Part shown: positions 18,578 through 51,906 of the stretch, piece after piece
How the letters are laid out: every line of letters starts with the position of its first letter
Numbering within the stretch: the first letter of the stretch is position 1
Assembly (NCBI RefSeq): GCF_041886205.1
Contig: NZ_CP169029.1
Strand: one strand, 5' to 3'
Length of the DNA: 64,000 bases
DNA from: Escherichia coli
Lineage (GTDB): Bacteria > Pseudomonadota > Gammaproteobacteria > Enterobacterales > Enterobacteriaceae
The notes under the pieces: generated by a model
Databases searched by the model: none
The model's input: the letters and a program-made list of their open reading frames with translations, nothing else
Told to the model about the DNA's origin: nothing
Position numbers and translations under genes: made by a program

Positions 18578-18622
18578 CACAACCAGGCACTTACTGGCCG
18601 GTTATCCATGTCTATATTATAT

Positions 18623-20197: not shown

Positions 20198-20198
20198 A

Positions 20199-22736: not shown

Positions 22737-22749
22737 TTACGGGCCCTTA

Positions 22750-23472
22750 TTATTTCAGAACGGATTCACCTTTCTGGTAACCACCATTATCATTCACCAC
22801 CGTCCATTCCACTTTTCCTGACGGAGAAACCTTCTGCTTCAGTCTGAAAGTGACAGATGAAAACGGTGCGGCCATCCCCCCCTGAGTACTGCTGACTTTC
22901 TGAGCTCCCTGTCCGACACTGACAGTACTGAAGGTAATAAAATAAGGCGTGGGATTACTGGCCTGAAGGGTATCACCGCCTGTAAGCTGCCATGTCACTT
23001 TCTTATATGCATCATCAGGAGAAAAAGGCAGACCATCAGGACGGAAAAAAAACTTAATCCGGGTGCGTACGGCAAACTGAAGGTAATTATATCCCTGTGC
23101 TTTTTCAGATTTTCCGGCAAAAGAAGGTTTGGCCGGAATATCAAGAACATTCAGCCAGAACAGTGATTCCCTGTCTGCCGGAAGTTTTTCTCCCGTATAC
23201 ATAATTCGCATTGTCTGTCCGGAAAGCGGCTCCATCCGGAAAACAGGAGGCGTAATAATAAACGGCACCCTGACAGAGTCAGGAGGGGAAGACGGGTCCC
23301 CTGTATCAAGCCATGCCTGTATCAGGGATGGCGTACTGTCTCCGTTATTCAGCCGGACATTAATACTTTTTTGTTCTGCAGGATAAATAACCCTGGTCCC
23401 CATAATAACCACACTGCCATATGAGGGCAGAGACAAAAGAACGGTAAAAATGAACAGCAGAATATGTTTCAT
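22750..23472 (-). CDS. periplasmic fimbrial chaperone (PapD-like)
   Basis: Start MKHILLFIFTVLLSLPSYG at 23472 with a GGAG RBS; about 240 aa, immediately upstream of the usher. Confidence 0.85.
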   Translation of the reverse strand: MKHILLFIFTVLLSLPSYGSVVIMGTRVIYPAEQKSINVRLNNGDSTPSLIQAWLDTGDPSSPPDSVRVPFIITPPVFRMEPLSGQTMRIMYTGEKLPADRESLFWLNVLDIPAKPSFAGKSEKAQGYNYLQFAVRTRIKFFFRPDGLPFSPDDAYKKVTWQLTGGDTLQASNPTPYFITFSTVSVGQGAQKVSSTQGGMAAPFSSVTFRLKQKVSPSGKVEWTVVNDNGGYQKGESVLK

Positions 23473-23539
23473 ACAGGCTCCGTAAACACGGGGCAAAATG
23501 CCCCGTGAACACTTAAGAAGGCAGGTATTAAGATAAAAA

Positions 23540-24088
23540 TTACTGATAAGCGATGGTGTAATTCACAGTGGCAGAAACGTTGCCGGCGGTGGCCTGACCT
23601 GTTGCATAGTACTGTGCGTTATAACGTAATGTCATTGCGTCATTATTAATAACAACAGGTGTTACTCCCTGATTAGCAGAATCATTACCAAGTAGTATCT
23701 GTGTGGTACCATCAGCATTCAGAAGCTGAATCTGGACTTTTGTTGCGTTACCAGAGCCACTACTTGAAATATTAAGGTTATGGCTATCATAATCAGTGGT
23801 CGCATTAGGCTCAAAATAAGCCTTCACACTTTGAGCTCCTGTAGCGGCAGCAGTATTACACCCACTCAGTGAAATTGTGAAAGGAGTAAGGCCTGCTACC
23901 TTCCCGGTTGAATCTAATGATTTTGTGGAGACAGTTGGTAGTGTAACTGTCAAGGGATCGGTTCCTGTAGTAACAGAACAAGTTTGATCAACAACTTTTC
24001 CATTAAAAGTAATTGTACCGTCATAAGCAAGTGTAGCAGAAGATGACGCAGCCGCCAGTATTCCAAGGATAAATTGAATTTTCCGCAT
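23540..24088 (-). CDS. major fimbrial subunit, F17-A-like pilin (182 aa)
   Basis: MRKIQFILGILAAASSSATLAYDGTITFNGKVVDQTCSV...NYTIAYQ resembles F17 major pilins (resemblance judged from memory, no alignment run). Confidence 0.8.
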   Translation of the reverse strand: MRKIQFILGILAAASSSATLAYDGTITFNGKVVDQTCSVTTGTDPLTVTLPTVSTKSLDSTGKVAGLTPFTISLSGCNTAAATGAQSVKAYFEPNATTDYDSHNLNISSSGSGNATKVQIQLLNADGTTQILLGNDSANQGVTPVVINNDAMTLRYNAQYYATGQATAGNVSATVNYTIAYQ

Positions 24089-24227
24089 AGAATCCTCAGT
24101 GAAACTGATAAGAATATATCATGAAAACAGCAGCAATTAAGAATTTAACTTAATATATTAAGAATAAATTTAATTGCCTATATACAAGATTATCCATAGT
24201 TAAAAAAACTCTCAAAACGTTAAAAAC

Positions 24228-24294
24228 GATCGATATTTCAATTTTGATAGATAAAAGCTATCAATAAACAAATTAACGATCGGTTGTAACGATC
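24228..24294. promoter_or_regulatory. cluster of three GATC (Dam) sites in ACGATCG contexts in the AT-rich region upstream of the fimbrial operon; candidate methylation-dependent switch
   Basis: GATC at 24228, 24278 and 24291, each within ACGATCG[AG]T. Confidence 0.3.
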
Positions 24295-25091
24295 GATAAA
24301 ATATATGAATCAACGTTGCCAAATAAAATAACACATCTGCAAAATAAAACTTTTTCATATTCAATAAATTAATTTCTATTTGTAACTATTACTTTTGATC
24401 ATGTATACGTTTTTAATCATAAATAATGATAATTAGCTTAGTTGATTATATAAAGGCTGTTTAGCCTGTGTTTAAGTTTTCATTTTTGTGAATTAAATCA
24501 CAAACAAGGATTTTCTGCGAATATAAATATATATAAAGTAAGATATATTATGTGCGTGTTTTATGCAGTTTATTTTTATTATCCCTATTTTCTGCAAAAC
24601 AACATATTAATCACTCTATCCATTTCTGACTCAGTTCCTTTTCTGTTCCAGGAAACCATTCATCATATTGCAGGAGAACACTCTCTGCGGGGAAATGGGA
24701 TGCAGAAACTTACAGACTACTGGCAACTTTAAATCTGTTTTTTCCGTTCAAAACGTGGGGGGATATAAGACCATACAGTGTCCAGCCAGGAAAAGTAACA
24801 ATAAAGCGCTACAGCATGGCTTCTTCCCCGGAAGAGTAGAGCGTAAAGAAGCTGTACATCACACCAATAAAGGAAACTGCCTGCACTTTTTCGCATCAGC
24901 CGTATTCTGAACAATCACCAGTGCCGCCCTCAACAGAATATACAGTATGATGATTTGGCTACCATGGCCAGGTTAACCAGTACGTTACGATGACTGTGCT
25001 GAGACATACTTATGGTCATCGTAAGCGTACAGCCTGAACCGTCTGGTCAGAATCTGACGAATTAGACAAAGTGGTGTCCACCAAATAAGTA

Positions 25092-25493
25092 GTGGGAACC
25101 AAAGTATCAGATATGCAGAAAAATGTGACTCCCGCCAGGCGAAAAGGCTGCCCTAATTATCCTCCCGAATTTAAACAGCAGCTCGTTGCTGCCTCCTGTG
25201 ACCCCGGGATATCCATCTCAAAACTTGCTCTTGAAAATGGCATTAACGCCAATCTGTTGTTCAAATGGCGACAACAATGGCGCGAGGGAAAGCTGCTATT
25301 ACCTTCTTCAGAGAGCCCCCAGCTACTTCCTGTGACTCTTGATGCAGTTGCCGAACAGCCAGAATCGCTCGCAGAGGACCCGGAAACCCTCAGTATCAGT
25401 TGTGAGGTAACGTTCCGGCACGGGACGCTCCGCTTCAATGGCAATGTCAGCGAAAAGCTCCTGACTCTGCTGATACAGGAACTGAAGCGATGA
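25092..25493 (+). CDS. tnpA: IS66-family TnpA
   Basis: 133-aa ORF, HTH region ...ISISKLALENGINANLLFKWRQQW... Confidence 0.85.
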   Translation: MGTKVSDMQKNVTPARRKGCPNYPPEFKQQLVAASCDPGISISKLALENGINANLLFKWRQQWREGKLLLPSSESPQLLPVTLDAVAEQPESLAEDPETLSISCEVTFRHGTLRFNGNVSEKLLTLLIQELKR

Positions 25494-25837
25494 TCCCGTT
25501 ACCTTCCGGGACCAAAATTTGGCTGGTTGCCGGTATCACCGATATGAGAAATGGCTTCAACGGCCTGGCTGCGAAAGTACAGACGGAGCTGAAAGACGAT
25601 CCCATGTCCGGCCATGTTTTCATTTTCCGGGGCCGCAGCGGTAGTCAGGTTAAACTGCTGTGGTCCACCGGTGACGGACTGTGCCTCCTGACCAAACGGC
25701 TGGAGCGTGGGCGCTTCGCCTGGCCGTCAGCCCGTGATGGCAAAGTGTTCCTTACGCAGGCGCAACTGGCGATGCTGCTGGAGGGTATAGTCTGGATGCA
25801 ACCGGGAAGGTCGAAAAGTAATAGTCTGCGGATCTGA
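25490..25837 (+). CDS. tnpB: IS66-family TnpB
   Basis: 115 aa, nearly identical to 14208..14558 over most of its length. Confidence 0.85.
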   Translation: MIPLPSGTKIWLVAGITDMRNGFNGLAAKVQTELKDDPMSGHVFIFRGRSGSQVKLLWSTGDGLCLLTKRLERGRFAWPSARDGKVFLTQAQLAMLLEGIVWMQPGRSKSNSLRI

Positions 25838-25856
25838 ATCCCTTTACCTGGGCAGG

Positions 25857-26443
25857 ATGAAAAATATCCCGCTTCCTGATAATATCGACCAGCTGAAAGC
25901 CCTGTTGCGTCAGCAGCAGGTTGCTGTGGAACAGCTAAATGTTACCATGAAAAAGCAGCAGGCCCGGCTGCGCCAGTACGCCGGACAGGTTGCCGACTAC
26001 GAACAGGAAATCGAACGGCTGAAGGCACAGCTTGATAAGTTGATAAGCTGCGGCGGATGCTGTTCGGGCAGAGTTCAGAGAAAAGCCGCAATAAACTGGA
26101 AAATAAAATCCGCCAGGCAGAGAAGCGGCTGGCTGAGCTGGAAAACCGTCTTGCAGCGGCAAAACGCTGTCTGCAGGACGATGAGCCCACTGTCAGTACG
26201 GTTGAGCAGGCAGAGCCCCCGGTGGCGGTCGCCCCACAGGACCGGCCTGCACGCCGCTCCCGTCGTCAGAAACTGCCGGCAGACCTGCCACGTGAAACCC
26301 GGCGCATCACCCCGACAGTGACTGTCTGCCCGAAATGCGGCGGCGACCTGAAGGTGATGAGTGAAACCGTCTCAGAGCAACTGGAGATAATCCGCAGCGC
26401 CTTTAAGGTCATCGAAACGGTGCGCCCGAAGCTGGCCTGCAGC
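25857..26443 (+). pseudogene. tnpC: IS66-family TnpC, N-terminal part, frameshifted by an 8-bp duplication and truncated
   Basis: MKNIPLPDNIDQLKALL...QLDKL then frame shifts at the duplicated TTGATAAG (26033..26048); continues in the 26057 frame (MLFGQSSEKSRNKL...CPKCGGDL...) and ends at the junction with cdiA. Confidence 0.75.
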
Positions 26444-29400
26444 GGTGTGCTTGTTGGTTCCGCCCTGAATACACAGTCACAGACCCTGACCAACAGTGGT
26501 CTGTTGCAGGGGGAGGCCTCACTCACCGTTAACACACAGAGGCTTGATAATCAGCAGAACGGCACGCTGTACAGTGCTGCAGACCTGACGCTGGATATAC
26601 CGGACATCCGCAACAGCGGGCTTATCACCGGTGATAATGGTTTAACGTTAAACACTGCCTCCCTCAGCAATCCGGGAAAAATCATCGCTGACACGCTGAA
26701 CGTCAGGGCGACCACGCTGGATGGTGATGGTCTGTTGCAGGGCGCCGGTGCACTGGCGCTTGCAGGCGACACCCTCTCACAGGGCCGTAACGGACGCTGG
26801 CTGACGGCGGGCGACCTCTCCCTCCGGGGTAAAACACTGCATACCGCAGGGACCATGCAGGGACAGAATCTCACCGTGCAGGCGGACAACTGGGCGAACA
26901 GTGGCTCCGTGCTGGCAACCGGTAACCTTACTGCTTCGGCAACCGGTCAGTTGACCAGTACCGGCGATATCATGAGCCAGGGTGACACCACGCTGAACGC
27001 AGCCACCACGGACAACCGGGGCAGTCTGCTTTCGGCCGGCACGCTCTCTCTTGATGGAAATTCACTGGATAACAGCGGCACTGTCCAGGGTAACCATGTC
27101 ACGCTTCACCACAGAAGCACTGACAACAGCGGTACGGTCACGGGGCTGAGCGGTCTGACCCTGCACAGCGCGGACGGGCTTACCAACAGTGGCGCGCTGC
27201 TGAGCCAGAACTCGCTGGCGCTGAGCGCAGGAGATGTGACCAACAGCGGCCGGATTCAGGGGCAGAACATCACTCTGGATGCCAGCAGCCTGACCAGCAG
27301 CGGTGCTGTTCAGAGTGCGCTGGATTTGGCTCTGACCCTGAGTGGCGATGTTATTGCTGCCACCGGCAGCAAAATTACCGCCATGGGCGATGCCCGCCTG
27401 ACCGGGAAAGTGCTGGGTAACCAGGGATTAATCAGCGCGAAGACGCTGGAAGTGAATGGTGATTCGCTCAGCAACAGTGGCGAAATCAGTGGTGTTAACA
27501 GCCTGAACGTGACACTCAGTGGTAATCTGCAACAGCACGGTAAAATGCTGACAGGCGGTGCATTAAACGTCAACGCCAGAGACATCAGCAATAGTGGGCA
27601 GCTTCAGGGGGCGGATAACCGAATCACCGCCAGTTCGCTGACCAACTCAGGTCGTGTGCAGGGCGACAGCGGGCTGACTCTTACATTGCTGAATGCCCTG
27701 ACCAACCAGACCAGCGGTGTGCTTCTCAGCCAGAACGTATCAGCGCTTTCCGCACCCGTGCTGACCAATGACGGCACCATTCAGGGCAACGGTAAAACCA
27801 CGCTCAGCGCGGCAACGCAGGCCCACAACAGTGGCAAGATTCTTTCCGGCGGTGAGCTGACGTTCACCACGCCGGACTACAGTGGCAGTGGCTGGCTACA
27901 GGCCACTGACCTGCTGCTGAACGTGGCGAAGCTTGCCGGTAATGGCACTGTGATGGCGGCGAATCAGGCAACGCTCACAGGTAACAGTCTGACCAACCGT
28001 GGCCTGTTCCAGGCCGCACAACTGAACGTCAACACGCAGACCATCACCAACAGCGGCACGCTGCTGGGTAATCAGGGCCTGACAATAAAAGGGAACAGCC
28101 TGAACAACGCCGGCGGGAAGGTATTCAGCGGCGGTGATATGCTTGCTGATATGGTCTCGCTCAGCGGCGCGGGCCAGCTGGTTGCACTCGGTAACCTGAC
28201 GCTGAAGCTCACCCGTGGTTTGACAGCACAGGGCGTTATCGCCGCGAATAAACAACTCTCCGTCAGCAGCCAGGGTGATATTACCAATGGCGCCACATTG
28301 CAGGGCAACGGTATCACGCTGAATGCGGCGGGCAGGCTGACCAACAATGGCCAGTTGACCGCCGGCAACGGCACCACGGCACTGAGCGGCAGCGGGATTG
28401 CGATGAATGCCAGCGGCAGCCTGCAGGCAGGCGGGGACGTCAGTCTGACCAGCCGGGGGGATATCACTCTCGACGGTTTTACCGGCACGACGGGTAGTCT
28501 GATGTTAACGGCCGCCGGGTCAGTCATTAACGCCGCACTGTTGTATGCGGGCAATAACCTCTCGCTGTTTGCCAGCACCATCCGGAACCATCACGGCGAT
28601 ATGCTGGCGGGTGACAGCCTGGTGATGCAGAAAGATGTCAGTGGTGCCGCGAATGCTGAAGTGATTAATACCTCCGGGAATATCGAAACCACCCGCGGTG
28701 ATATCACCATCAGAACCGGACATTTACTGAATCAGCGGGAGGGTATAAATGAGACAAAATCATACATTCCGGTTGAGAATGTCGCAGTACCTGATGGTGC
28801 AAATTCTGTTTCAGTCAGAGTGGGCGATTTAGGTGAAGATGGATGGGGATATTATGTGAAGTCCTGGAGCGGTACTGCCGGTGGTGGTTTTGAGGCATGG
28901 GCCGTTCCGACTGAAAAGGGAGCCACCCGGAAATTTCTGACTGGCACAACACGCGTCGATGTTGGTGCAACAGGGGGGGATGCCAGAATTTCGGCCGGGA
29001 ATAATCTGCTGATTGACGCGGACAAACTGGATAATACGGGAAGTCATCTTCTTGCCAGCGAGTTTGTCAGCCTGTCGGGTTCACAACTGAATAATCAGTC
29101 CTTCTTTGGCTATACACAGGATGAATACAATGTGTATCGCTATTACGGCAAACTGGCCATGATCCCCAACGACGGGCATCTGCAGTATGGAGATGCTTCT
29201 GCCGATGATCGCGTTACCTTTACTCTCTCCGGAGCTCCGGAATATGTCACCAGAGACACCGGTCAGGCTCTGAGAGCCGTGATTCAGGCAGGCAAAAATG
29301 TCACTGCCGTTTTTTCCAGTGATATCAGTAATACATCCACAACCTCAAATGCAGGACGGATCACAAATACCCTTGCGGCACCTGAAATTAACACGCCGGC

Positions 29401-29553
29401 AGAGAAAAATATCAGCCCGGGAATGGCTCAACTGGCGCCGGATGGCACAGAGACGCTGACCGTCACGGCCCCGGACTGGACTGACACCATTACCCGTCTG
29501 ACGATCGGCAGTGGTACGGACCTGGCTTCCGGCATCGTGGTGGGGAACTATCC
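26444..29553 (+). pseudogene. cdiA: cdiA internal segment (filamentous haemagglutinin-type repeat region), 5'-truncated and fused in frame to the tnpC remnant
   Basis: Long Gly/Asn/Thr/Ser-rich repeat region (...LTNSGLLQGEASLTVNTQRLDNQ...); no cdiB or CdiA secretion domain upstream; interrupted at 29553 by IS186. Confidence 0.8.
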
Positions 29554-30892
29554 CATAAGCGCTAACTTAAGGGTTGTGGTATTACGCCTGATATGATTTA
29601 ACGTGCCGATGAATTACTCTCACGATAACTGGTCAGCAATTCTGGCCCATATTGGTAAGCCCGAAGAACTGGATACTTCGGCACGTAATGCCGGGGCTCT
29701 AACCCGCCGCCGCGAAATTCGTGATGCTGCAACTCTGCTACGTCTGGGGCTGGCTTACGGCCCCGGGGGGATGTCATTACGTGAAGTCACTGCATGGGCT
29801 CAGCTCCATGACGTTGCAACATTATCTGACGTGGCTCTCCTGAAGCGGCTGCGGAATGCCGCCGACTGGTTTGGCATACTTGCCGCACAAACACTTGCTG
29901 TACGCGCCGCAGTTACGGGTTGTACAAGCGGAAAGAGATTGCGTCTTGTCGATGGAACAGCAATCAGTGCGCCCGGGGGCGGCAGCGCTGAATGGCGACT
30001 ACATATGGGATATGATCCTCATACCTGTCAGTTCACTGATTTTGAGCTAACCGACAGCAGAGACGCTGAACGGCTGGACCGATTTGCGCAAACGGCAGAC
30101 GAGATACGCATTGCTGACCGGGGATTCGGTTCGCGTCCCGAATGTATCCGCTCACTTGCTTTTGGAGAAGCTGATTATATCGTCCGGGTTCACTGGCGAG
30201 GATTGCGCTGGTTAACTGCAGAAGGAATGCGCTTTGACATGATGGGTTTTCTGCGCGGGCTGGATTGCGGTAAGAACGGTGAAACCACTGTAATGATAGG
30301 CAATTCAGGTAATAAAAAAGCCGGAGCTCCCTTTCCGGCACGTCTCATTGCCGTATCACTTCCTCCCGAAAAAGCATTAATCAGTAAAACCCGACTGCTC
30401 AGCGAGAATCGTCGAAAAGGACGAGTAGTTCAGGCGGAAACGCTGGAAGCAGCGGGCCATGTGCTATTGCTAACATCATTACCGGAAGATGAATATTCAG
30501 CAGAGCAAGTGGCTGATTGTTACCGTCTGCGATGGCAAATTGAACTGGCTTTTAAGCGGCTCAAAAGTTTGCTGCACCTGGATGCTTTGCGTGCAAAGGA
30601 ACCTGAACTCGCGAAAGCGTGGATATTTGCTAATCTACTCGCCGCATTTTTAATTGACGACATAATCCAGCCATCGCTGGATTTCCCCCCCAGAAGTGCC
30701 GGATCCGAAAAGAAGAACTAACTCGTTGTGGAGAATAACAAAAATGGTCATCTGGAGCTTACAGGTGGCCATTCGTGGGACAGTATCCCTGACAGCCTAC
30801 AAAACGCAATTGAAGAACGCGAGGCATCGTCTTAACGAGGCACCGAGGCGTCGCATTCTTCAGATGGTTCAACCCTTAAGTTAGCGCTTATG
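29554..30892 (+). mobile_element. IS186 (IS4 family), 1339 bp, with a 10-bp target-site duplication GGAACTATCC
   Basis: Terminal inverted repeats CATAAGCGCTAACTTAAGGGTTG (29554) and CAACCCTTAAGTTAGCGCTTATG (ending 30892); GGAACTATCC at 29544-29553 and 30893-30902; the cdiA frame is restored across the insertion. Confidence 0.9.
29609..30721 (+). CDS. insL: IS186 transposase
   Basis: 370-aa product MNYSHDNWSAILAHIGKPEELDTSARNAG... from the ATG at 29609. Confidence 0.9.
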   Translation: MNYSHDNWSAILAHIGKPEELDTSARNAGALTRRREIRDAATLLRLGLAYGPGGMSLREVTAWAQLHDVATLSDVALLKRLRNAADWFGILAAQTLAVRAAVTGCTSGKRLRLVDGTAISAPGGGSAEWRLHMGYDPHTCQFTDFELTDSRDAERLDRFAQTADEIRIADRGFGSRPECIRSLAFGEADYIVRVHWRGLRWLTAEGMRFDMMGFLRGLDCGKNGETTVMIGNSGNKKAGAPFPARLIAVSLPPEKALISKTRLLSENRRKGRVVQAETLEAAGHVLLLTSLPEDEYSAEQVADCYRLRWQIELAFKRLKSLLHLDALRAKEPELAKAWIFANLLAAFLIDDIIQPSLDFPPRSAGSEKKN

Positions 30893-30902
30893 GGAACTAT
30901 CC

Positions 30903-33900
30903 CCTGCCTTCCGGTAACAATGGTTATTTTGTCCCGTCCACGGACCCGGACAGTCCGTATCTGATTACGGTGAATCCGAAACTGGATGGTCTCGGAAAGG
31001 TGGACAGCAGTCTGTTTGCCGGACTGTATGACCTGCTCAGGATGCACCCCGGGCAGGCACCACGTGAAACAGACCCGGCGTATACTGATGATAAACAATT
31101 CCCGGGCTCATCGTATTTTCTTGACCGGCTCGGGCTGAAACCGGAAAAAGATTATCGCTTCCTGGGGGATGCCGCTTTTGATACCCGCTATGTATCGAAC
31201 TATATGCTGAACCAGATCGGGGGGCGCTATATCAACGGGGTTGGTTCAGACACCGACCAGATGCGCTACCTGATGGATAACGCTGCCCGTGCACAGAAGG
31301 CGCTCGGTCTGAAGTTTGGTGTGGCACTGACAGCAGACCAGGTGGCGGCTCTCGACCAAAGTATTCTGTGGTATAAAGCCGTCACGATAAAGGGTCAGAC
31401 GGTGATGGTGCCGGAAGTGTATCTGTCACCGAAAGATGTGACGCTGCAGAACGGCAGTATTATCAGCGGTCAGAATGTGCACCTGGCAGGAGGGAATGTC
31501 ACTAACAGTGGCAGTACCCTGATGGCGCAGAATGATCTCACCATCGACAGCGCTGACAGTCTGGGTAACCTTGAGTCCGGGCTTATAAATGCCGGTGGCG
31601 CTCTCGGACTGAAAGCGATGGGCGATATCAACAATATCAGTGCCACGATTACCGGTAAGACTGTCCGGCTGGAGAGTCTCGCCGGCAATGTCAATAATCT
31701 CACCCGGTACTCACACTGGCAGCTTGATGCACCGGAAGACAGCCTCGCCCTGAAACACACTTATACGGGAAGCATTGCCTCTGTCAGTGCCATGGATAGT
31801 CTGGACATCCGGGCAGATAAAAACATTTCGGTCACAGGGGCAGAAATCAGCGCCGGAGGTCGCGCAGCACTTATTGCCGGCAATGATCTCAGTCTGAATG
31901 CCATTGACAGGGTAAGCAGCAGTCGCCATGCAAACAGTGAATCTCACCAGCGCAGTGCAGAACTTACGACCATTACTGCCGGCGACAGTGTGATGCTGAG
32001 TGCAGGCCGGGATGTGAGCAGTCAGGGTGCAGGTATCGCAGCGGAAGACAACATCACTGTCCGGGCCGGGCGCGACGTTAATCTGCTGGCGGAAGAGTCC
32101 GTGACCGGCAGCAGTTCATACTCGAAAAAGAAAACGGTCATTGATGAAACCGTTCGCCAGCAGGGAACGGAAATCGCCAGCGGTGGTGACACCACCATTA
32201 CTGCAGGACGGGATATCACCGCTGTTGCGTCATCCGTTACCGCAACCGGCAATATCAGTGTGAATGCCGGTCGTGATGTCGCCCTGACCACGGCGACAGA
32301 AAGTGACTATCACTATCTGGAAACGAAGAAAAAAAGCGGAGGTTTTCTCAGTAAGAAAACCACCCACACCATCAGTGAGAACAGTGCCACCCGTGAAGCA
32401 GGCGCCCTGCTGTCGGGGAACCGCGTGACCGTTAACGCCGGTGATAACCTGACAGTACAGGGTTCGGATGTGGTGGCTGACCGGGATGTGTCACTGGCGG
32501 CGGGTAACCATGTTGATGTTCTTGCTGCCACCAATACAGATACGTCCTGGCGCTTTAAGGAAACGAAGAAATCCGGTCTGATGGGTACCGGCGGTATTGG
32601 TTTCACCATTGGCAGCAGTAAGACAACGCACGACCGCCGCGAGGCCGGGACAACGCAGAGTCAGAGTGCCAGCACCATCGGCTCCACTGCCGGTAATGTC
32701 AGTATTACCGCGGGCAAACAGGCTCATATCAGCGGTTCGGATGTGATTGCGAACCGGGATATCCGCATTACCGGTGACAGTGTGGTGGTTGACCCGGGGC
32801 ATGACCGTCGTACTGTGGACGAAAAATTTGAGCAGAAGAAAAGCGGGCTGACGGTTGCCCTTTCCGGCACAGTGGGCAGTGCCATCAATAATGCGGTTAC
32901 CAGTGCACAGGAGACGAAGGAGAGCAGTGACAGCCGTCTGAAAGCCCTGCAGACCACAAAGACAGCGCTGTCTGGTGTGCAGGCCGGACAGGCTGCGGCA
33001 ATGGCCACCGCAACCGGTGACCCGAATGCGACGGGAGTCAGCCTGTCGCTCACCACCCAGAAATCGAAATCACAACAACATTCTGAAAGTGACACAGTAT
33101 CCGGCAGTACGCTGAATGCCGGGAATAATCTGTCTGTTGTCGCAACCGGCAAAAACAGGGGCGATAACCGCGGAGATATTGTGATTGCAGGAAGCCAGCT
33201 TAAGGCCGGTGGTAACACAAGCCTGGATGCCGCGAATGATATTCTGTTGAGTGGCGCTGCAAATACACAAAAAACAACGGGCAGGAACAGCAGCAGTGGC
33301 GGTGGCGTGGGTGTCAGTATCGGTGCCGGTGGTAACGGTGCCGGTATCAGTGTCTTTGCCAGCGTTAATGCGGCAAAAGGCAGCGAGAAAGGTAACGGTA
33401 CTGAGTGGACTGAAACCACAACAGACAGCGGTAAAACCGTCACCATCAACAGTGGTCGGGATACGGTACTGAACGGTGCTCAGGTCAACGGCAACAGGAT
33501 TATCGCCGATGTGGGCCACGACCTGCTGATAAGCAGCCAGCAGGACACCAGTAAGTACGACAGTAAACAGACCAGCGTGGCTGCCGGCGGCAGTTTTACC
33601 TTTGGCTCCATGACCGGCTCAGGTTACATCGCTGCCTCCCGGGATAAGATGAAGAGCCGCTTTGATTCCGTTGCTGAACAAACCGGAATGTTTGCCGGTG
33701 ACGGCGGCTTCGACATTACAGTGGGCAGACATACCCAACTGGATGGTGCGGTGATTGCCTCCACTGCCACACCGGATAAAAACCACCTGGATACCGGAAC
33801 GCTGGGGTTCAGTGACCTTCACAACGAAGCGGATTATAAAGTCAGTCACAGTGGAATCAGTCTGAGCGGTGGTGGCAGCTTCGGGGATAAATTTCAGGGT

Positions 33901-35406
33901 AACATGCCGGGTGGCATGATATCCGCCGGAGGTCACAGCGGACATGCGGAAGGAACGACTCAGGCCGCAGTGGCAGAAGGCACTATCACCATCCGGGACA
34001 GGGACAATCAGAAGCAGAATCTGGCGAACCTGAGCCGTGACCCTGCGCACGCTAATGACAGTATCAGCCCGATATTTGACAAGGAGAAAGAGCAGAGGCG
34101 TCTGCAGACAGTGGGGCTTATCAGTGACATAGGCAGTCAGGTGGCGGATATTGCGCGTACACAGGGAGAACTGAATGCGTTGAAGGCCGCGAAGGAAGCA
34201 ACCGGCGAAACACTTCCTGCTAATGCAACAGAGAAACAACGTCAGGAATATCTTGCGAAACTGCGTGACACGCAGGCTTACAGGAATGAAATGGCGAAGT
34301 ATGGCACTGGTAGTGAAATTCAGCGGGGTATCCAGGTCGCGATGGCAGCGCTTCAGGGCCTGGCGGGCGGCAATATGGCAGGCGCGCTGGCAGGTGCTTC
34401 AGCGCCGGAGCTGGCGAACATCATCGGTCATCACGCGGGTATTGATGACAATACAGCTGCAAAAGCCATTGCCCATGCCATTCTCGGTGGTGTGACAGCA
34501 GCCCTTCAGGGCAACAGTGCGGCAGCAGGCGCAATTGGCGCGGGTACTGGCGAAGTGATCGCGTCAGCCATTGCGAAAAGCCTCTACCCGGACGTAGATC
34601 CGTCGAAACTGACAGAAGAGCAGAAGCAAACTGTAAGCACGCTGGCAACGCTGTCAGCGGGTATGGCCGGCGGTATTGCCAGTGGCGATGTGGCTGGCGC
34701 GGCTGCTGGGGCTGGTGCCGGGAAGAACGTTGTTGAGAATAATTTACTTGGCGGTAGTGAAGATGCTCAGGCTGCGTGGATACGCCAGCATGGTATCGAC
34801 ATGGCGACATGTGCAGAAAACCCTTCCGGTGCCGCCTGCCAGAAAGCAATGAATGAGAGGGATGCTGTAGGGCTGGCTCTGGCAACAGGTACAGTGGCAC
34901 TACTCCCCGGTAGTGCTCAGGCTATGTGGGGACTGGGAGCAAGTGCGAATGCTGGTATCAGTTATCTGGCTGATGGTACTGTAGATCCGGCAAACGCAGC
35001 CATTGCAGGCTGGGTGAATGTGTTCAGCATGGGTAATGGCCTGGCGGGGACTGTGGGCTGGAATGCGGCAGGTGGTGCGCTGGGTAACTGGATCGACAAC
35101 AAAGATCCTCTGTCTGGTGCAATTTCAAATGGTATCGGTTCTGCTGCCGGGTATGGTATCGGTAAAGGTGTTACTTGGGGGACAGATAAGATTACGAATG
35201 CTGTAGGAAAATGGGTGACAAATGGCTGGGATCCTAAGTACGATCCAACATGGATAAAATATGCTGAAGTAAATCGTAACGATATCATTCGAGAAGGCAT
35301 GAAACCGAGCAATGTTCCTGGAACTGCTGGAGATATTGGCGGTTCTATAGGATCTGAGCTAGGTGGAAAAGTAACAGATAAAGTATCTGAGGAACTCAAG
35401 AAATGA
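30903..35406 (+). pseudogene. cdiA: cdiA 3' portion: repeat region, pretoxin region, VENN motif (34732..34743) and a Gly-rich C-terminal toxin domain (CdiA-CT)
   Basis: In-frame continuation of 26444..29553 once IS186 and one duplicate are removed; ...[15 protein letters not shown]... precedes a Gly/Ala-rich CT resembling membrane-acting CdiA-CTs. Confidence 0.8.
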
Positions 35407-35660
35407 AATATTCTTCTCGAGTGGTAATAGGTAAGTTTATTATATGCAGTTCAATTCTCTTATTGTGTTTTATTGGCATGATCTTAGCGGCCATAATAAC
35501 TAAACTAACGTTTGTAGCGTTAGCATGGTTTCAAAGCGGGATTTTTGAAGTTTTGTGGAGCGATATTGTTTATGCTGCTCAGTTGGGTGGTCTGGGGGGG
35601 GGCATATTAGGTTTTTGTTGGGTTTTGTTATATCTTTTTAGGGCAAAGGGCTTTAGTTGA
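35403..35660 (+). CDS. cdiI: CdiI immunity protein (85 aa, integral membrane)
   Basis: Overlaps the cdiA stop (ATGA); hydrophobic small protein [35 protein letters not shown]... Confidence 0.75.
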
Positions 35661-36564
35661 GAATAACTACCTCAGCTACGACGAGGCGCATGCTTTTGAC
35701 AGAGAAATGACGGCCTGTCGTAAAGCGGGTGGAGACTGTGGCGATATTCAGAATAAATATGCTGTATTAAGCGCAGAGAACCGACAGAAATTACACATTG
35801 ATGTGGCTGCAGATCCTCTTACGGCTCTGTCCGGGGAAGATAAATGGAATATTGAGGGCGGACTCAGCGCGGCGGGCCGACCTGGCTGGCTGTATGGTTC
35901 ACTGACTAATCAGGAGGTGAAGGATTACGTGACTGAAGGCAACAGCTACGACCTGAACTATCTGAACAGTAATACGTCGAAGGGTGACAGGGCTCTGGCT
36001 TTCTTCGGGGAACCGGAAAATTACTGGGGTACGGTTGCCGGAGCGGGTTCGTTGTTAACGTCATCAGCCACGCTGACTGAAAAATTTGTCAGTGCCGGGC
36101 TGAGCTATGGGGCTAATGGTGCGGTACAAATTGGTACGGGAAATATCGGTGATAAGTTCGATTATCTCAGTTTCATGATGTCAGGCTTGACTGGTGTAGG
36201 TACAGCCGGGAAAGGATATTACGCTAACCAGTTGTTGGGTGCTGGTAGTGCTTACATGAGCAGCCAGATTGAAGGCCAGGACAGTACCGCATCAGTAGTG
36301 GGTAGCATGGCTGGTACAGGCCTAGGATATAACGTTGGTGCTTCAATTACTAATAAGTTAGAAGCTCAATACATCAAAAATCAACTGGGAATGGACGCCA
36401 GTAAATATTCACTGCAATATTCGGAAAAGTCTATCGGATACGGTATGTATCAAGGCGGACAAATGAGTTCTATACCAGGAACATTTGGTGGATTTGTTGG
36501 TTCATTCGTATCAGAAGGTGCAAGCAGCGCAACGCAAAAAGAAGTTGATGGAGACAAAAAATGA
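35656..36564 (+). CDS. orphan cdiA-CT module 1 (VENN onward; no start codon of its own)
   Basis: Begins [55 protein letters not shown]...; ORF track 35707..36564. Confidence 0.7.
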   Translation, partial: VENNYLSYDEAHAFDREMTACRKAGGDCGDIQNKYAVLSAENRQKLHIDVAADPLTALSGEDKWNIEGGLSAAGRPGWLYGSLTNQEVKDYVTEGNSYDLNYLNSNTSKGDRALAFFGEPENYWGTVAGAGSLLTSSATLTEKFVSAGLSYGANGAVQIGTGNIGDKFDYLSFMMSGLTGVGTAGKGYYANQLLGAGSAYMSSQIEGQDSTASVVGSMAGTGLGYNVGASITNKLEAQYIKNQLGMDASKYSLQYSEKSIGYGMYQGGQMSSIPGTFGGFVGSFVSEGASSATQKEVDGDKK

Positions 36565-36779
36565 AAAAATATCTACTACTTCTTATTAAGTTGTTACTTA
36601 TATCTATAGCTACTTGCTCTATTGGAATAGTGGTTAGTATCTGGCTTATAGCTCGGGAACCAATACCTTCTGAGGTGTATGTAAAATACGGAATAATTGG
36701 CGCAGTAGTTGGCTTATGGGGAGGTGCTGGGATTTGGTTACAACTCTATCTACAAATGCGAAGATACTATCGTAAATAG
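36561..36779 (+). CDS. orphan cdiI immunity 1 (72 aa, membrane)
   Basis: ATGA overlap with the preceding CT; hydrophobic product MKKYLLLLIKLLLISIATCSIGIVVSIWL... Confidence 0.65.
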   Translation: MKKYLLLLIKLLLISIATCSIGIVVSIWLIAREPIPSEVYVKYGIIGAVVGLWGGAGIWLQLYLQMRRYYRK

Positions 36780-36784
36780 TTGTT

Positions 36785-37429
36785 GTTGAGAATAACTCAC
36801 TGGCGCATGTACTGGCAGCAGCGGAAGCGAACAAAGCAGGGACTGCAGAGAAATGGCAGGAAGAGCAGCAGGCTGCGATTAGAGAGGCGTGCAGTGGTGG
36901 TACGCCGGTTTCGTGTGAAACAGCAGTCGCAGCGATGGGAAGTGCAATGGTATGGCCGCTATTGCCAGGGGCGGCAGCCACTACAAGTCTGATAGGTGCA
37001 GGAGCGAATGCCGGCATCGGGTTACTGATTAACGGTGAAGTGAATCCAAATGATGTCATTCTTGGTTACTGGACGGGAGTCTTTACAGCAGGAACTAGGC
37101 TGTGGGGGACGATGGGTGTGAATGCGGCCAGCGGAGCCACATCCAGCTATCTAAAAGGTGATGATCCGCTGAAAGGTGGGGCAATGGGGGGAATGTCGTC
37201 AGGATTAGGATATGGTGCTGGCAAAGTTCTTCAGGGGCAACTCGATAAGTTCATTAATCCAAACTGGAAGAATTGGGAGTGGGTTGATGTTGGTATGGGC
37301 ATATCGAAGCCAATGCCATTAGATCCACTGCCTGGGGTTATCGGCAATATGGGAGGTTCTGCGTCTACAGAATACATCAACGATCGAATAGGAAAATCTT
37401 TGAGTGATAAATCAGGAGATAAGAAATGA
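36785..37429 (+). CDS. orphan cdiA-CT module 2 (VENN onward)
   Basis: Begins VENNSLAHVLAAAEANKAGTAEKWQEEQQAAIREACSGG...; ORF track 36935..37429; Gly-rich CT. Confidence 0.7.
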   Translation, partial: VENNSLAHVLAAAEANKAGTAEKWQEEQQAAIREACSGGTPVSCETAVAAMGSAMVWPLLPGAAATTSLIGAGANAGIGLLINGEVNPNDVILGYWTGVFTAGTRLWGTMGVNAASGATSSYLKGDDPLKGGAMGGMSSGLGYGAGKVLQGQLDKFINPNWKNWEWVDVGMGISKPMPLDPLPGVIGNMGGSASTEYINDRIGKSLSDKSGDKK

Positions 37430-37680
37430 GTTCTTCTGACCGCAAAAAGATCCTGATCCTTTTAATATGCATGGTGACTGGTAGTGCTGTTGGTGTTTTT
37501 ATAACCATACTATCTATGTCTTTATTAATAGATATATATCTATATATCGCAGAAGGTATAAGGTTAGACATGCATACATATAATCTTGAAAAACTTTTTA
37601 AAGTAAGTTCATTCTGTGGTTGTATAGGCGGCGGTGGCTGTTGGTTACTCTATTATCGAAATTATAGAAAAAATAAATAA
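37426..37680 (+). CDS. orphan cdiI immunity 2 (84 aa, membrane)
   Basis: ATGA overlap; MSSSDRKKILILLICMVTGSAVGVFITILSMSLLIDIYL... Confidence 0.65.
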   Translation: MSSSDRKKILILLICMVTGSAVGVFITILSMSLLIDIYLYIAEGIRLDMHTYNLEKLFKVSSFCGCIGGGGCWLLYYRNYRKNK

Positions 37681-37683
37681 TAG

Positions 37684-37809
37684 TTGAGAATAACTACCTC
37701 AGCTACGACGAGGCGCATGCTTTTGACAGAGAAATGACGGCCTGTCGTAAAGCGGGTGGAGACTGTGGCGATATTCAGAATAAATATGCTGTATTAAGCG
37801 CAGAGAACC
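37684..37809 (+). pseudogene. remnant duplicate of the 5' end of orphan cdiA-CT 1, closed by a TAG
   Basis: 37684-37806 matches 35656-35778 ([45 protein letters not shown]) then TAG. Confidence 0.7.
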
Positions 37810-39173
37810 GACAGAAATAGGATATTGCCGGGCTCAGCCGGGACCCGGAAAACGCCAACGGCAGCATTGCACCGATATTTGACAGGGAGAAAGAGCAGAA
37901 GCGTCTTCAGGAAGCGCAGGTTATCAGCCAGATTAGCGGTCAGATGAGTAACATCGTCATGACGTATGGCGAAACTGAAGCGATGAAAGCAGCCAGGAAA
38001 GAGCATCCTGGCATGAGCGATGCACAGTTGCGGGAGACTCCGGAATACAGAGAGGTCATGAAAGGCTACGGTACGGGCAGTACGCCGCAGATGGTGGTAC
38101 AGGCCATCACAGGCGTGCTGGGCGGACTGAATGCAGGGAATCCGGGGCAGGTACTGGCTGGCGGTCTGAATCCGGCAGTGGCACAGCTTATAAAACAGGC
38201 CACCGGCGATAACCGGGAAGCAAACCTGATGGCTCACGCAGTCTGGGGAGCGCTTGCCGCACAACTGGGCGGAAACAATGCGGCTTCCGGTGCTGCAGGG
38301 GCATTCAGCGGTGAACTTGCAGCCCGGTATATCATTGATAACTACTACGGTGGTCGTACCGATAACCTGAGTGAACAGGAACGTCAGCAAATCAGCATGC
38401 TGGCCACCATTGCCTCAGGTATTGCGGGCGGGCTTGTCGGCAACAGTACAAGTGCTGCCGGTACGGGGGCACAGGCAGGCAGGAACTCGGTTGAGAATAA
38501 TGCGCTGAGTCTGGTTGCCAGAGGCTGTGCGGTCGCAGCACCTTGCAGGACTAAAGTTGCAGAGCAGTTGCTGGAAATCGGGGCGAAAGCGGGCATGGCC
38601 GGGCTTGCCGGGGCGGCAGTCAAGGATATGGCCGACAGGATGACCTCCGATGAACTGGAGCATCTGATTACCCTGCAAATGATGGGTAATGATGAGATCA
38701 CTACTAAGTATCTCAGTTCGTTGCATGATAAGTACGGTTCCGGGGCTGCCTCGAATCCGAATATCGGTAAAGATCTGACCGATGCGGAAAAAGTAGAACT
38801 GGGCGGTTCCGGCTCAGGAACCGGTACACCACCACCATCGGAAAATGATCCTAAGCAGCAAAATGAAAAACCTGTAGATAAGCTTAATCAGAAGCAAGAA
38901 AGTGCGATTAAGAAGATCGATAACACTATAAAAAATGCTCTGAAAGATCATGATATTATTGGAACTCTCAAGGATATGGATGGTAAGCCAGTTCCTAAAG
39001 AGAATGGAGGATATTGGGATCATATGCAGGAAATGCAAAATACGCTCAGAGGATTAAGAAATCATGCGGATACGTTGAAAAACGTCAACAATCCTGAAGC
39101 TCAGGCTGCGTATGGCAGAGCAACAGATGCTATTAATAAAATAGAATCAGCCTTGAAAGGATATGGAATATGA
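37810..39173 (+). CDS. orphan module 3: pretoxin region, VENN and a distinct C-terminal toxin domain, derived from a different cdiA allele
   Basis: ...[26 protein letters not shown]... parallels the main cdiA pretoxin region (34010-34740); VENN within [14 protein letters not shown] track 37944..39173. Confidence 0.7.
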
Positions 39174-39556
39174 TTACCTTACGTAAATTGATTGGAAACA
39201 TCAATATGACAAAAGAGCCTGAGCAACAATCACAGCTTGAACTCTGGTTCGAACGTATCATAGATGTGCCTCTTGAAAAGTTAACAGTGGAAGATCTTTG
39301 CCGCGCTATCCGACAAAATTTATGTATTGATCAGTTGATGCCAAGAGTGTTGGAAGTTCTAACTAAAGAGCCGTTAGCGGGTGAATATTACGATGGTGAA
39401 CTAATTGCAGCTTTATCAACGATAAAAGGAGAAGATCTAAAAGATCAGAAAAGTACCTTTACCCAAATAAGGCAACTTATAAACCAGCTAGAACCGTCAG
39501 ATATTAACGATGATTTAAGAAAAGATATATTAAAAATCAATCAGATAATTGTATAA
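39170..39556 (+). CDS. orphan cdiI immunity 3 (128 aa, soluble)
   Basis: ATGA overlap with the module 3 stop; product [43 protein letters not shown]... Confidence 0.6.
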
Positions 39557-39588
39557 CTAATCCCGGTCACTGAGCCGAGATCTTCTTT

Positions 39589-41380
39589 GTGTGCCGGGCA
39601 TGTTCAGCAGCTCGGGGGTGAAAGTCCCCTGTCCAGCCTGATGGTGGCGAAGGACTAGCGAAGCGCAAGGGCGTCGTCGTAAGGCGGGGTCTGAAGGAAG
39701 CGTGAAGCAAATCCATGACCTGACGAACAGAAATCCGATACGAGGCCTACCCGGTTGGCGGAGCAAGCAAAGAATTGCGAAGGCCATAACCATCAAGAAC
39801 CGGGGGGTAAATCGGACAGGTGTGTGGTGAAGGCGTCTGAACTTACCCCGGGAGGCCTGTCCGTCGTTCTGTATCTAGAACTTAGCGTACCGTAAGGGGC
39901 GCTGACCGGCGGACAGGAGTCAGCAGAGGGCATAGTAGGGCATGACACCCGAAGGCCCGAACGGTAATGAGTGACGAGTATCAACGGAGGTTCTGAACGG
40001 TCATGCAGCAGAAAACGCATCGCGCCCCTGAGGCCGGAGAACGGGGTGAAGCCCCGAACGCCGCCCTTCCGGGGGCTGAAACCGTGCAGGCACCGACGAA
40101 CAGAGAAAGTCCGTCGTCAACAGTGTGGCTGATGGAAGCCATTTGTGAACCAGTCAATCTCAGGCAAGCCCTGAAAAGAGTTAAAGCCAACAAAGGTGCA
40201 GCGGGAGTCGATGGTATGCGCGTAAGCGAACTGCCGGACTACCTGAGGCACCACTGGCCAGAGCTGAAAGCGCAACTACTGTCTGGCAGATACCGCCCAT
40301 CTCCTGTGAGAAGAGTGTCCATACCGAAGCCCGGCGGCGGCGAACGTCTGCTGGACATCCCGACGGTGGTGGATCGCTTCATCCAGCAGGCGATGATGCA
40401 GGTATTGCAGGGGCACTGTGGGATAGCTCGTTCAGCGATAACAGCTACGGGTTCCGTCCCGGTCGTTCGGCCCACCAGGCAGTGATACAGGCCCGGGAAC
40501 ATATCGGGGCCGGGTATCACTGGGTGGTCGACCTCGATCTGGAGAAGTTCTTCGACCGGGTAAATCACGATGTGCTGATGAGCCGGATAGAGAAACGAGT
40601 ATCGGATAAACGGGTGTTGTCACTTATCCGCAGGTTCATGAATGCAGGGGTGATGGACGCAGGTCTGGTAAGGCCGGTGACAGAAGGAACGCCGCAGGGC
40701 GGCCCACTGTCGCCGCTGCTATCGAACCTGCTGCTTGACGACCTCGACAAGGAACTGGAGAAACGTGGTCTGAAGTTCGTGCGGTACGCAGACGACTGTA
40801 ATGTCTACGTGAAAAGCGAACGGGCAGACAACCGGATCATGGCGGGGTTGACGCACTGGCTGAGCCATAAACTGAAGCTGAAGGTCAACGCGAAGAAGAG
40901 TGCTGTAGCACGCCCTGAAACGCGCAAGTTCCCTGGATACAGCTTCATAAGGGGGCGGAAGGTATGGTGCGTGGTATCGCCGGAGTCGATAAAACGGTTC
41001 AAAATGCGGATAAGAGCACTGACCGGACGCAACACAGGGAGAAGCCTTGAACAGCTAACCCGGTTGCTAAAACGATATCTGACGGGCTGGAAAAGTTACT
41101 ACGGGCTGAACCAGAGGCCATCGCTGATGCGAGAGCTGAACGGATGGATAAGGCGCAGTCGAGGCGTAAGCAAGGACCTTGCGGCGCAAACAGCAGGAAG
41201 CTGCCATAAAGAGTGGCGGATAAGCTGTAGTCCGGCACTGAATATAGCACTCCCCAATAATCTGTTCTCCAGACTGGGCCTGCCAGAAGTATAGGCAGGC
41301 GACGATCAACATAACCGAACCGCCGTATACGGCCCCATACGTACGGTGGTGTGGGAGGAAGCTGATCGTGAGATCAGCTC
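39589..41380 (+). mobile_element. bacterial group II intron (about 1.8 kb) with a frameshifted intron-encoded protein
   Basis: 5' GTGTG at 39589; internal ORFs encode reverse-transcriptase motifs including the YADD box; a domain V-like hairpin (ACCGCCGTATACGG...ACGTACGGTGGT) lies near 41318-41350; the 3' boundary is approximate (about 20 bp either way). Confidence 0.7.
40003..41294 (+). pseudogene. group II intron reverse transcriptase/maturase split into two ORFs by a frameshift
   Basis: ORF 40003..40485 ends ...QGHCGIARSAITATGSVPVVRPTRQ while the next frame reads SSFSDNSYGFRPGRSAHQAVIQAREHIG... and continues into ORF 40482..41294, which carries ...FVRYADDCNVYV... Confidence 0.75.
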
Positions 41381-41446
41381 CTATCCCGATTTAACCGTCA
41401 GTCTCCCCCAAAATGCCCGTCCTGGCGCTTGTACACTGGCATATTG

Positions 41447-41535
41447 GCATGATCTTAGCGGCCATCATAGCTAAACTAACGTTTGTAGCGTTAACATGGT
41501 TTCAAAGCGGGATTTTTTAAGTTTTGTGGAATGAT
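41447..41535 (+). pseudogene. partial duplicate of cdiI (matches 35473-35561)
   Basis: GGCATGATCTTAGCGGCCAT[CA]ATA[GA]CTAAACTAACGTTTGTAGCGTTA[AG]CATGGTTTCAAAGCGGGATTTTT shared with the cdiI gene. Confidence 0.6.
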
Positions 41536-41591
41536 GCGTATTTTCATGAAAGGAGATCACTCAATAACTTCCATCGAGATCGGGTAATAAC
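41536..41591. repeat. copy 3 of the unclassified palindromic repeat (left half only), truncated by an IS66-family end
   Basis: GCGTATTTTCATGAAAGGAGATCACTCAATAACTTCCATCGAGATCGGGTAATAAC then GTAAGC of the IS begins at 41595. Confidence 0.6.
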
Positions 41592-41956
41592 ATTGTAAGC
41601 TTCCGGGGAACTCATATTGACGCGTTTTTCAGGCGCGCGTCATCGGCGGCGCATACGAACGATCGTGGTCTGATAACGGTTGATTTATTTTGTTGCACAG
41701 GGGCGATCGCCAGGCAGGTACCGGAGGCGGGCTCTGAAGTACTGAGTAGGGTGATCGCGTCAGGCCGCGAAGTACTGACTCGGGGATTAATGGCAGGTGA
41801 TGATGTACTGACCCGGGAATGACTCCGGGCTGATTCAGGTTCTTATTCGCTGTCAGCCCGTGTGGTTGCTGGTCTGGCTCATTTCCTGTCGTCAGGAGTT
41901 CAACTCCCGACTGCAGGTTATGGCCCGGTGCACGAACACCTGACGGCAGGTATCAC

Positions 41957-43444: not shown

Positions 43445-43564
43445 GACTTTTTATACCATGGCAAGTGCCATGGCACGCAGTTTTTCGATGTCATTCGTGG
43501 TGTTGAGAGCGGAGATGTCCATACAGGGGAGCATACCACTCCGGATACGGATATTAATTATTTT

Positions 43565-51903: not shown

Positions 51904-51906
51904 ATA

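Follow-up and report, generated by a model that had tools for sequence, protein, structure and literature searches.

Positions 25.1–39.6 kb of the 64-kb stretch of Escherichia coli DNA analysed here (the window, which is what we have of the source genome) carry, with a probability of about 0.82, the remnant of a second locus of the cdiBAI type (contact-dependent growth inhibition, CDI). This locus lies in a mobile-element-rich island of a bovine-type E. coli; it has been truncated by a deletion and is split by the insertion sequence (IS) IS186. It is best taken as a second, decayed cdi locus and not as a loss of CDI, because strain ZYB39, which is identical to the window over ~27 kb, keeps an intact cdiB-cdiA elsewhere. 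The decay is of an ordinary, already-known kind in a known system, and the modules are near-identical to those of public genomes. Decayed and orphan-bearing cdi loci, their disruption by IS elements and the idea of an "immunity repertoire" are already in the literature. The sole mildly new point is a recurrent IS186 hotspot within one cdiA allele class.

A decayed CDI locus had been proposed in the initial annotation, and these of its hallmarks are present: filamentous hemagglutinin (FHA) repeats (TIGR01731, E 6.5e-15, NCBIfam), 96–98% nucleotide identity to annotated cdiA genes over window positions 26420–34770, a VENN pre-toxin domain (PT-VENN, PF04829, E 5.6e-17, Pfam) and the cognate immunity gene cdiI directly downstream of cdiA. 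The VENN motif is encoded at 34732–34743, exactly where module homology begins, and the C-terminal (CT) toxin region, CdiA-CT, spans 34744–35403. An adjacent cdiB is missing, as are the signal peptide and the two-partner secretion (TPS) domain of CdiA. The locus had been taken to end at 35660; it continues to ~39.6 kb with three orphan toxin/immunity modules. Its open reading frames (ORFs) up to cdiI are of 1,179 codons (26057–29596), 372 codons (29603–30721, the transposase), 1,478 codons (30970–35406) and 85 codons (35403–35660). The features of the locus are the following:

25092..26443, + strand: IS66-family remnant with tnpA, tnpB and the first ~497 nt of tnpC (ORFs; tnpA/tnpB annotated in ZYB39; 603/604 identity to "full" copies)
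26420..26443, + strand: deletion breakpoint, a 24-nt patch of imperfect tnpC/cdiA homology (crossover within the common GCAGC)
26444..29553, + strand: cdiA remnant part 1, FHA-1 repeats and receptor-binding region, ~residues 624–1660 (TIGR01731, nucleotide identity to cdiA, residue alignment)
29544..29553, no strand: left copy of the 10-bp target-site duplication GGAACTATCC (right copy at 30893–30902)
29554..30892, + strand: IS186/IS421 (IS4 family), 1339 bp, transposase ORF 29603–30721 (inverted repeats; homologous annotated copies; absent in ZYB39)
30893..35406, + strand: cdiA remnant part 2, YP domain, FHA-2 and pre-toxin domain (frame continuity after IS excision; PT-VENN)
35403..35660, + strand: cdiI, 85-aa hydrophobic immunity protein (identical to WP_000877779.1)
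35656..36779, + strand: orphan module 1, CT to 36564 and 72-aa membrane immunity ORF 36561–36779 (identity to FRIK944 o1; HHalign)
36935..37680, + strand: orphan module 2, CT fragment 36935–37429 lacking VENN and 84-aa membrane immunity ORF 37426–37680 (HHalign)
37683..39556, + strand: orphan module 3, pre-toxin stretch, CT ORF 37944–39173 and CdiI 39170–39556 (PDB 5J5V)
39673..41294, + strand: degenerate group II intron at the end of the cdi array (Rfam RF02001, 130 bits, and RF01998, 50.5 bits; reverse transcriptase (RT) matches in PADLOC)

Deletion between an IS66 element and cdiA

Homology to tnpC of intact IS66 copies stops at 26443, and homology to intact cdiA genes begins at 26444. The tnpC gene is cut at nt ~497 of 1562, and no IS end is found at the junction. 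The two sequences share the 24-nt patch, which reads GTGCGCCCGAAGCTGGCCTGCAGC in IS66 and GTGCGCCGGAACTGACCAGCAGC in intact cdiA (five intact alleles compared). This internal cut, the lack of an IS end and the shared patch indicate that the sequence in between was deleted, at a patch of microhomology between an already defective IS66 and cdiA, and that no clean IS66 insertion caused the truncation. An 8-bp duplication (~26033–26049), also present in the "full" IS66 copies, shifts the frame of tnpC. As a result, the fusion ORF can start no earlier than ATG 26057, and not at the tnpC start at 25857. The initial annotation had cdiA starting at 26444 in frame with a truncated tnpC; the position is right to the base, but tnpC itself is frameshifted. 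We consider the in-frame join a matter of chance, with no evident functional meaning.

The first residue of the remnant pairs with residue 624 of full-length CdiA (blastp), so that the remnant has neither signal peptide nor TPS domain and lacks the beginning of FHA-1. The whole window was searched for these parts by tblastn and blastn with sequences of strain N10. Its cdiB gave no significant match in the 64 kb, and its CdiA residues 1–615 gave at most weak internal-repeat similarity by tblastn and nothing by blastn. These searches confirm that the secretion domain and cdiB are absent from the window. With its export signals (signal peptide, TPS domain) gone, this cdiA copy should be unable to deliver any toxin, in agreement with the original proposal for its CT.

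Among the 5,426 complete genomes surveyed for the junction and the toxin/immunity module, only ZYB39 (bovine, China) and JML285 (human, Japan) carry the IS66::cdiA junction. ZYB39 has the same truncated locus. The JML285 remnant contains frameshifts and an internal stop, and its downstream cdiA body is of a different allele class. Because the junction is shared by both strains and JML285 shows decay, the truncation took place before IS186 arrived, with recombination and decay of the remnant ever since. The first step was a deletion that fused nt ~497 of the frameshifted tnpC with cdiA codon ~624 at the 24-nt patch. It occurred before the split of the three lineages (window strain, ZYB39 and JML285). 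Lost with it were cdiB and the native promoter region and, from CdiA, the signal peptide, the TPS domain and the initial FHA repeats.

A further IS66-associated difference lies upstream. JML285 matches the window from 1 to 14516 and then from 25271 onward, without the ~10.7-kb segment between. This segment (14516–25271), which holds an F17 fimbrial operon together with part of potE, is flanked by 98%-identical IS66 tnpA/tnpB segments (13989–14516 and 25271–25795), which suggests that the F17 cluster was inserted or deleted via IS66.

On its pheV-type island, ZYB39 has at 900174–911489 a cdiB that is intact (591 aa) and a cdiA of full length (3,176 aa), with orphans of their own. This primary cdiA is a different allele from the remnant (66.5% protein identity) with a different CT, and the two share a 726-bp nucleotide block of 97% identity and a 2.7-kb one of 91%. 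A chimeric query of tnpC and cdiB/cdiA-5' matched six places in ZYB39 versus two for tnpC alone, one of the additional places being the primary locus. JML285 similarly has a separate full-length cdiA and extra cdiB/cdiA-5' matches. The decay had been said to hinge on there being no cdiB and cdiA 5' region elsewhere from which an intact gene could be reconstituted. Such sequences do exist, as the intact cdiB and cdiA of ZYB39 and the separate full-length cdiA of JML285, but they are complete genes of another allele class and are not the missing half of the remnant. By analogy with ZYB39, the source strain is probably still CDI competent via a separate intact cdiBAI locus and should not be taken as CDI-negative.

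IS186 at a recurrent target site in cdiA

IS186 is delimited by perfect 23-bp inverted repeats, CATAAGCGCTAACTTAAGGGTTG, at 29554 and 30892, with GGAACTATCC on both sides. The chance expectation for this 10-mer is 0.14 per window, and a third copy at 60538, in unrelated sequence, is a chance match. Homologous IS copies are annotated with the IS421 transposase WP_001300563.1. The size of ~1.34 kb, the 23-bp repeats, the single transposase, the 10-bp duplication and the target motif all identify an IS186/IS421 element. The original target, GGGG-AACTAT-CCCC, provides the codons for G-N-Y-P in cdiA. The published target motif of IS186 is 5'-GGGG(N6/N7)CCCC-3' (Lee et al. 2016, PMC5009759).

When the IS is excised in silico along with one of the two repeats, a single uninterrupted ORF of 2,666 codons results, and the excised sequence exactly matches the empty site of ZYB39. 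ZYB39 is 100% identical to the window over the 9.0-kb left flank (20543–29554), differs by one mismatch, at 37677, over the 6.9-kb right flank (30892–37798) and is again 100% identical over 37791–49000, giving a total of one mismatch in ~27 kb. IS186 is absent from this otherwise identical locus. As ZYB39 offers a natural empty site with near-zero divergence, the insertion is very recent. The initial annotation of a recent simple insertion, with a clean 10-bp duplication and the frame restored across it, is thus upheld on each count. In this second step, IS186 entered a perfect GGGG-N6-CCCC hotspot where the receptor-binding region meets the YP domain. As a natural isogenic pair set apart by a single IS186 in cdiA, the window strain and ZYB39 could serve to measure polarity on the downstream immunity genes.

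The same cdiA site is occupied by IS186 in three further complete genomes, N10, JNEC-KY203, and CFIAFB20180511. In N10, the IS is in the same orientation, and cdiB and the cdiA 5' end are present. In JNEC-KY203, the orientation is also the same, and the right flank corresponds to the rpiA region (GGAGGTTCCCCC), not to the rest of cdiA. This points to subsequent recombination of two IS186 copies, by which the 3' half of cdiA was lost or inverted. In this strain, cdiB is also frameshifted (IS and flank at 12001–13440 of the examined region). In CFIAFB20180511, the IS is identical in sequence and has the same duplication but faces the other way. Its opposite orientation shows that this insertion is independent, and it rules out a single ancestral event for all IS186 copies at the site. 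N10 is nearly identical to the window over 26920–33170, and ZYB39 sides with the window wherever N10 and the window differ. To judge from these alignments, the N10 copy would require either two gains or one gain and one loss, and the hotspot favours two gains.

In mutation-accumulation lines, G4-N6/N7-C4 sites received up to 16 independent IS186 insertions, in either orientation, and IS excision was rare (PMC5009759). Known hotspots are the lon promoter, fimA, and menC (PMC5009759). Like these, the cdiA site has a perfect N6 motif, a 10-bp duplication and repeated occupation across genomes in both orientations. Unlike them, it consists of G-N-Y-P codons and is limited to one cdiA allele class: the GGGG-N6-CCCC motif is present in the N10/GmM077/window class and absent from the strain 11/ZYB39-primary/JML285 class. 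In the literature that we looked at, cdiA is nowhere described as a hotspot of IS186. With at least four genomes occupied, in both orientations, the site deserves attention in annotation and in population studies on the loss of CDI. It is conceivable, though we think it very unlikely, that the G-N-Y-P string acts in this class as a recurrent natural IS186 "off switch" for CDI, an adaptive one in which a costly or self-harming delivery arm is inactivated and the immunity genes are kept. The lineages concerned would be the window strain, CFIAFB20180511 (opposite orientation), JNEC-KY203, and perhaps N10. If true, this would give a one-site answer to the question of Lee et al. (2016) whether IS186 targets are selectively retained.

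Another IS differs between the two strains. ZYB39 has an ISCro1 among its orphan modules (15938–18553 of the ZYB39 region), with an 8-bp overlap at window positions 37791–37798, where the window has none. The ISCro1 of the window, at 49234–51936, is 98.5% identical to the ZYB39 copy.

Toxin tip, immunity gene and orphan modules

The cdiI gene is intact, as originally annotated: the ORF at 35403–35660 encodes a protein identical to WP_000877779.1. It is preceded by a GAGGA ribosome-binding site 7 nt upstream and overlaps the cdiA stop in an ATGA. The protein has two hydrophobic stretches (~4–45 and 61–79) and can be aligned to the immunity proteins of o8, o9, and o10, with which it shares a C-terminal G-rich/W-L motif. 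The cattle isolate strain 11 has an intact cdiB-cdiA-cdiI with an identical toxin tip, WP_000877779.1 being encoded after a full-length cdiA. The CT/cdiI module is 100% identical in strain 11 and 99.9–100% identical to the sixth orphan of O157:H7 FRIK944. The names "o6" and "o10" used here come from counting modules in FRIK944, starting from the main cdiA through the SSuT-split o9 (Poole 2011, PMC3150448) to the CdiA-o11 annotated by NCBI. In our survey, the module (34760–35670) is present in 258 of the 5,426 genomes, mostly as an orphan, and is 100% identical across many serotypes. In 2014C-4587 and PS2Canimalfeces12, it ends a cdi locus containing cdiC (lysine acyltransferase). Both have cdiB and the 5' end of cdiA in fragments, so that a locus with the same toxin tip has decayed by a separate route.

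The CT family is widespread in Enterobacterales. A GxxxGxxxG motif (G124, G128, and G132), characteristic of a glycine zipper, is invariant in 30 homologues, and two nearly invariant cysteines lie near the N-terminus. Comparison with the CT at the o10 position of FRIK944 by HHalign gave a probability of 95.4% (E 1.7e-8) over 117 columns that cover the glycine-zipper region. In experiments, the o10 module depolarised the cells that it targeted (Jones et al. 2021, PMC7858069), and the CdiI proteins of CDI ionophores are hydrophobic hairpin proteins of 72–100 aa (Halvorsen et al. 2024, PMC11630599). The CT thus combines homology to a validated depolarising toxin, o10 by position, with a small hydrophobic CdiI of 85 aa. 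Toxin domains of this family are predicted to be five-helix bundles; a low-confidence AlphaFold2 model of the CT, built on the 30-sequence alignment, is all-helical, with helices at 48–69, 74–86, 91–109, 114–133, and 140–150 (mean pLDDT 45.5, pTM 0.35). From these sequence features, the CT is a probable member of the glycine-zipper superfamily of CDI ionophores. It resembles those of EC93 and EC869 (CTo10-EC869) in its glycine zipper, its all-helical prediction, the lack of a database domain, its hydrophobic CdiI and its profile homology to o10. Unlike for the tested CDI ionophores, its activity is a prediction, and our searches matched it to no entry group.

Database searches returned little more. 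NCBIfam identified only the FHA repeat in the CT, cdiI, and orphan proteins, and PADLOC found nothing in the CDI parts. In the supplements of Halvorsen 2024, searched by accession, peptide string, and strain name, the CT had no counterpart among the six published ionophore groups. The two conserved cysteines and the Edwardsiella homologues hint at a group 4/YciB entry domain. The PDB sequence search gave no match between the CT and the TA271/o11 entry domain and so lends a YciB-type entry domain no support. The Edwardsiella homologues are orphan fragments and do not correspond to the tested ACR70209.1.

Orphan 1 starts exactly at VENN codons (35656–35667), which overlap the cdiI stop. It is 96.6% identical to FRIK944 o1 and related to the main CT family (HHalign, 91.7%). 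Orphan 2, which has no VENN, is also related to this family (HHalign, 99.6%, E 6.5e-24), and the immunity proteins of orphans 1 and 2 are related to each other (E 2e-6). The single nucleotide by which the ~27 kb shared by the window and ZYB39 differ, at 37677, falls in the last codon of the orphan-2 immunity ORF (AAA in the window versus AAC in ZYB39). Orphan 3 opens with a duplicated 136-bp VENN start of the o1 type (37683–37818) and encodes a CysK-dependent tRNase CT/CdiI pair of the uropathogenic E. coli (UPEC) 536 type (PDB 5J5V, chain B, E 5.9e-147; chain C, E 1.7e-78). As orphan modules are described by Poole 2011, orphan 1 qualifies by its VENN start and orphan 3 by its VENN and 536-type pair. 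The group II intron that follows has RNA domains D1–D4 at 39673–39957 and an RT split into two ORFs (40003–40485 and 40482–41294); D5/D6 gave no above-threshold Rfam match. By homology, the 3' end of the locus encodes an EC869 "o6"-type tip with its 85-aa membrane immunity protein, followed by the three orphan modules.

This organization is similar to that of the EC869/O157:H7 cdi array, which has 11 orphans (Poole et al. 2011, PMC3150448): VENN starts lack start codons, immunity ORFs are small, the main CT/cdiI corresponds to its sixth orphan and orphan 1 to its o1, and IS elements disrupt the array. Unlike in EC869/O157:H7, the o6-type module occupies the main position, in frame with a cdiA body from another class of alleles; this cdiA has lost its 5' part and has no cdiB, and there are three orphans only, ending in a group II intron. 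The CT and CdiI of orphan 3 are near-identical to those of UPEC 536 (PDB 5J5V). As in EC93, the 536-type module is an orphan downstream of an ionophore module. Unlike EC93 orphan o1, orphan 3 comes after two more orphans of ionophore-like type, and the duplicated o1 VENN start marks it with a scar of recombination.

An isolated CdiA-CT (7408–7725) with its CdiI (7731–8105), near-identical to the pair of PDB 5T86 (E 2.9e-58 and 3.4e-78), is located ~18 kb upstream of the cdiA remnant. No cdiA body accompanies it (7408–8105), and JML285 has the same arrangement.

Alternatives and the retention of the immunity genes

Several points weigh against our reading of the locus as a second, recently IS186-split cdi remnant with an ionophore-type tip. 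The intact primary locus is deduced from ZYB39, the source being known from 64 kb only. The ionophore assignment is based on profile homology and composition, and the AlphaFold2 model is poor (pLDDT ~45). Pfam matched the CT only with PT-VENN, the toxin domain having no Pfam match, and the PDB sequence search with the CT gave only insignificant matches to transmembrane segments of an ammonium channel. The labels "o6" and "o10" would shift with the counting of modules in FRIK944. The window and N10, near-identical over ~6 kb, may have IS186 by shared descent and recombination. A sigma-70 promoter scan of 30.7–39.7 kb found 10 candidates versus 9.4 expected, with no enrichment over shuffled sequences, and thus gives no grounds to propose a promoter inside the locus for cdiI.

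The initial annotation explained the intact cdiI by selection for immunity against kin carrying the intact system. Extended to the orphan immunity genes, this explanation holds that they are kept against the matching toxins of neighbours while the delivery part may decay freely. The hypothesis of selection for immunity is an established one, and we regard it as possible but doubtful for this locus. A suitable neighbour exists, as the cattle isolate strain 11 carries the intact system with identical CT and CdiI in the host niche of ZYB39. The ribosome-binding site of cdiI and the conservation of the module across serotypes are consistent with this explanation, as is the precedent of EC93 with its expressed, functional orphan CdiI; that bacteria keep an immunity repertoire in the form of orphan modules is a standard idea (PMC3150448; PMC9086364). 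However, cdiI is intact in five of the nine genomes checked and inactivated in the other four, by W52* in GmM077, ATCC 25922, and CFT073 and by a frameshift in the second copy of JML285. The class with 95–99% identity accounts for 275 of 339 records, and all three sampled members carry W52*. The native promoter region has been deleted, and IS186 now intervenes. With a single mismatch to ZYB39 in ~27 kb, divergence is too small to measure selection, and the 2,666-codon cdiA remnant is equally free of stop codons; an intact 85-codon cdiI therefore carries no signal. The comparison data are uninformative on selection, and an intact cdiI is no evidence of it, contrary to what had been suggested. 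The intactness of the four immunity ORFs is best explained by the recency of the decay, not by demonstrable selection. If transcribed, they could confer immunity. Stand-alone orphan cdiI islets, such as that of the EC869-like CdiI of S. Typhi (cited in PMC9086364), likewise show persistence of immunity without a working local delivery system. Unlike in the S. Typhi islet, the locus here retains the greater part of cdiA and has decayed recently.

The remnant might also act as an extended orphan array, a recombination reservoir of CT/cdiI modules from which an intact or incoming cdiA could switch toxin, as proposed for such arrays in PMC3150448. The nucleotide blocks shared by the remnant and the intact cdiA of ZYB39, the modules starting exactly at VENN codons and the duplicated 136-bp segment would fit this idea. 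The different allele behind the same junction in JML285 indicates exchange after the truncation, and GmM077 has this module as an orphan that follows another main CT. Yet no exchange between the two loci of this lineage is documented, and in ZYB39 they lie at least ~1.4 Mb apart (0.90 and 4.49 Mb) on a 5.04-Mb circular chromosome. A reservoir is also a population-level benefit that is hard to select for, and we consider this function unlikely. Maintenance of cdiI by addiction, the remnant producing intracellular toxin, with translation starting at ATG 26057 or further inside, as in a toxin–antitoxin pair, is extremely improbable. Before IS186, the fusion ORF did run without interruption from the ATG inside tnpC to the CT, but it is now split, and the CT is located behind at least 1,478 residues; extra N-terminal residues are published to blunt or abolish cytosolic ionophore toxicity. 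In the W52* lineages, the CT is also broken. In the second copy of JML285, the CT is intact and cdiI frameshifted, so that loss of cdiI is tolerated.

Downstream of the cdi locus, the window contains a complete-looking type III cyclic oligonucleotide-based antiphage signalling system (CBASS) at 51907–57451, all parts of which have strong PADLOC matches:

51907–53382, − strand: 491-aa TIR/PN-superfamily effector
53397–54296, − strand: WYL regulator
54466–55410, + strand: oligonucleotide cyclase
55407–55895, + strand: HORMA protein
55895–56791, + strand: TRIP13 ATPase
56849–57451, + strand: exonuclease

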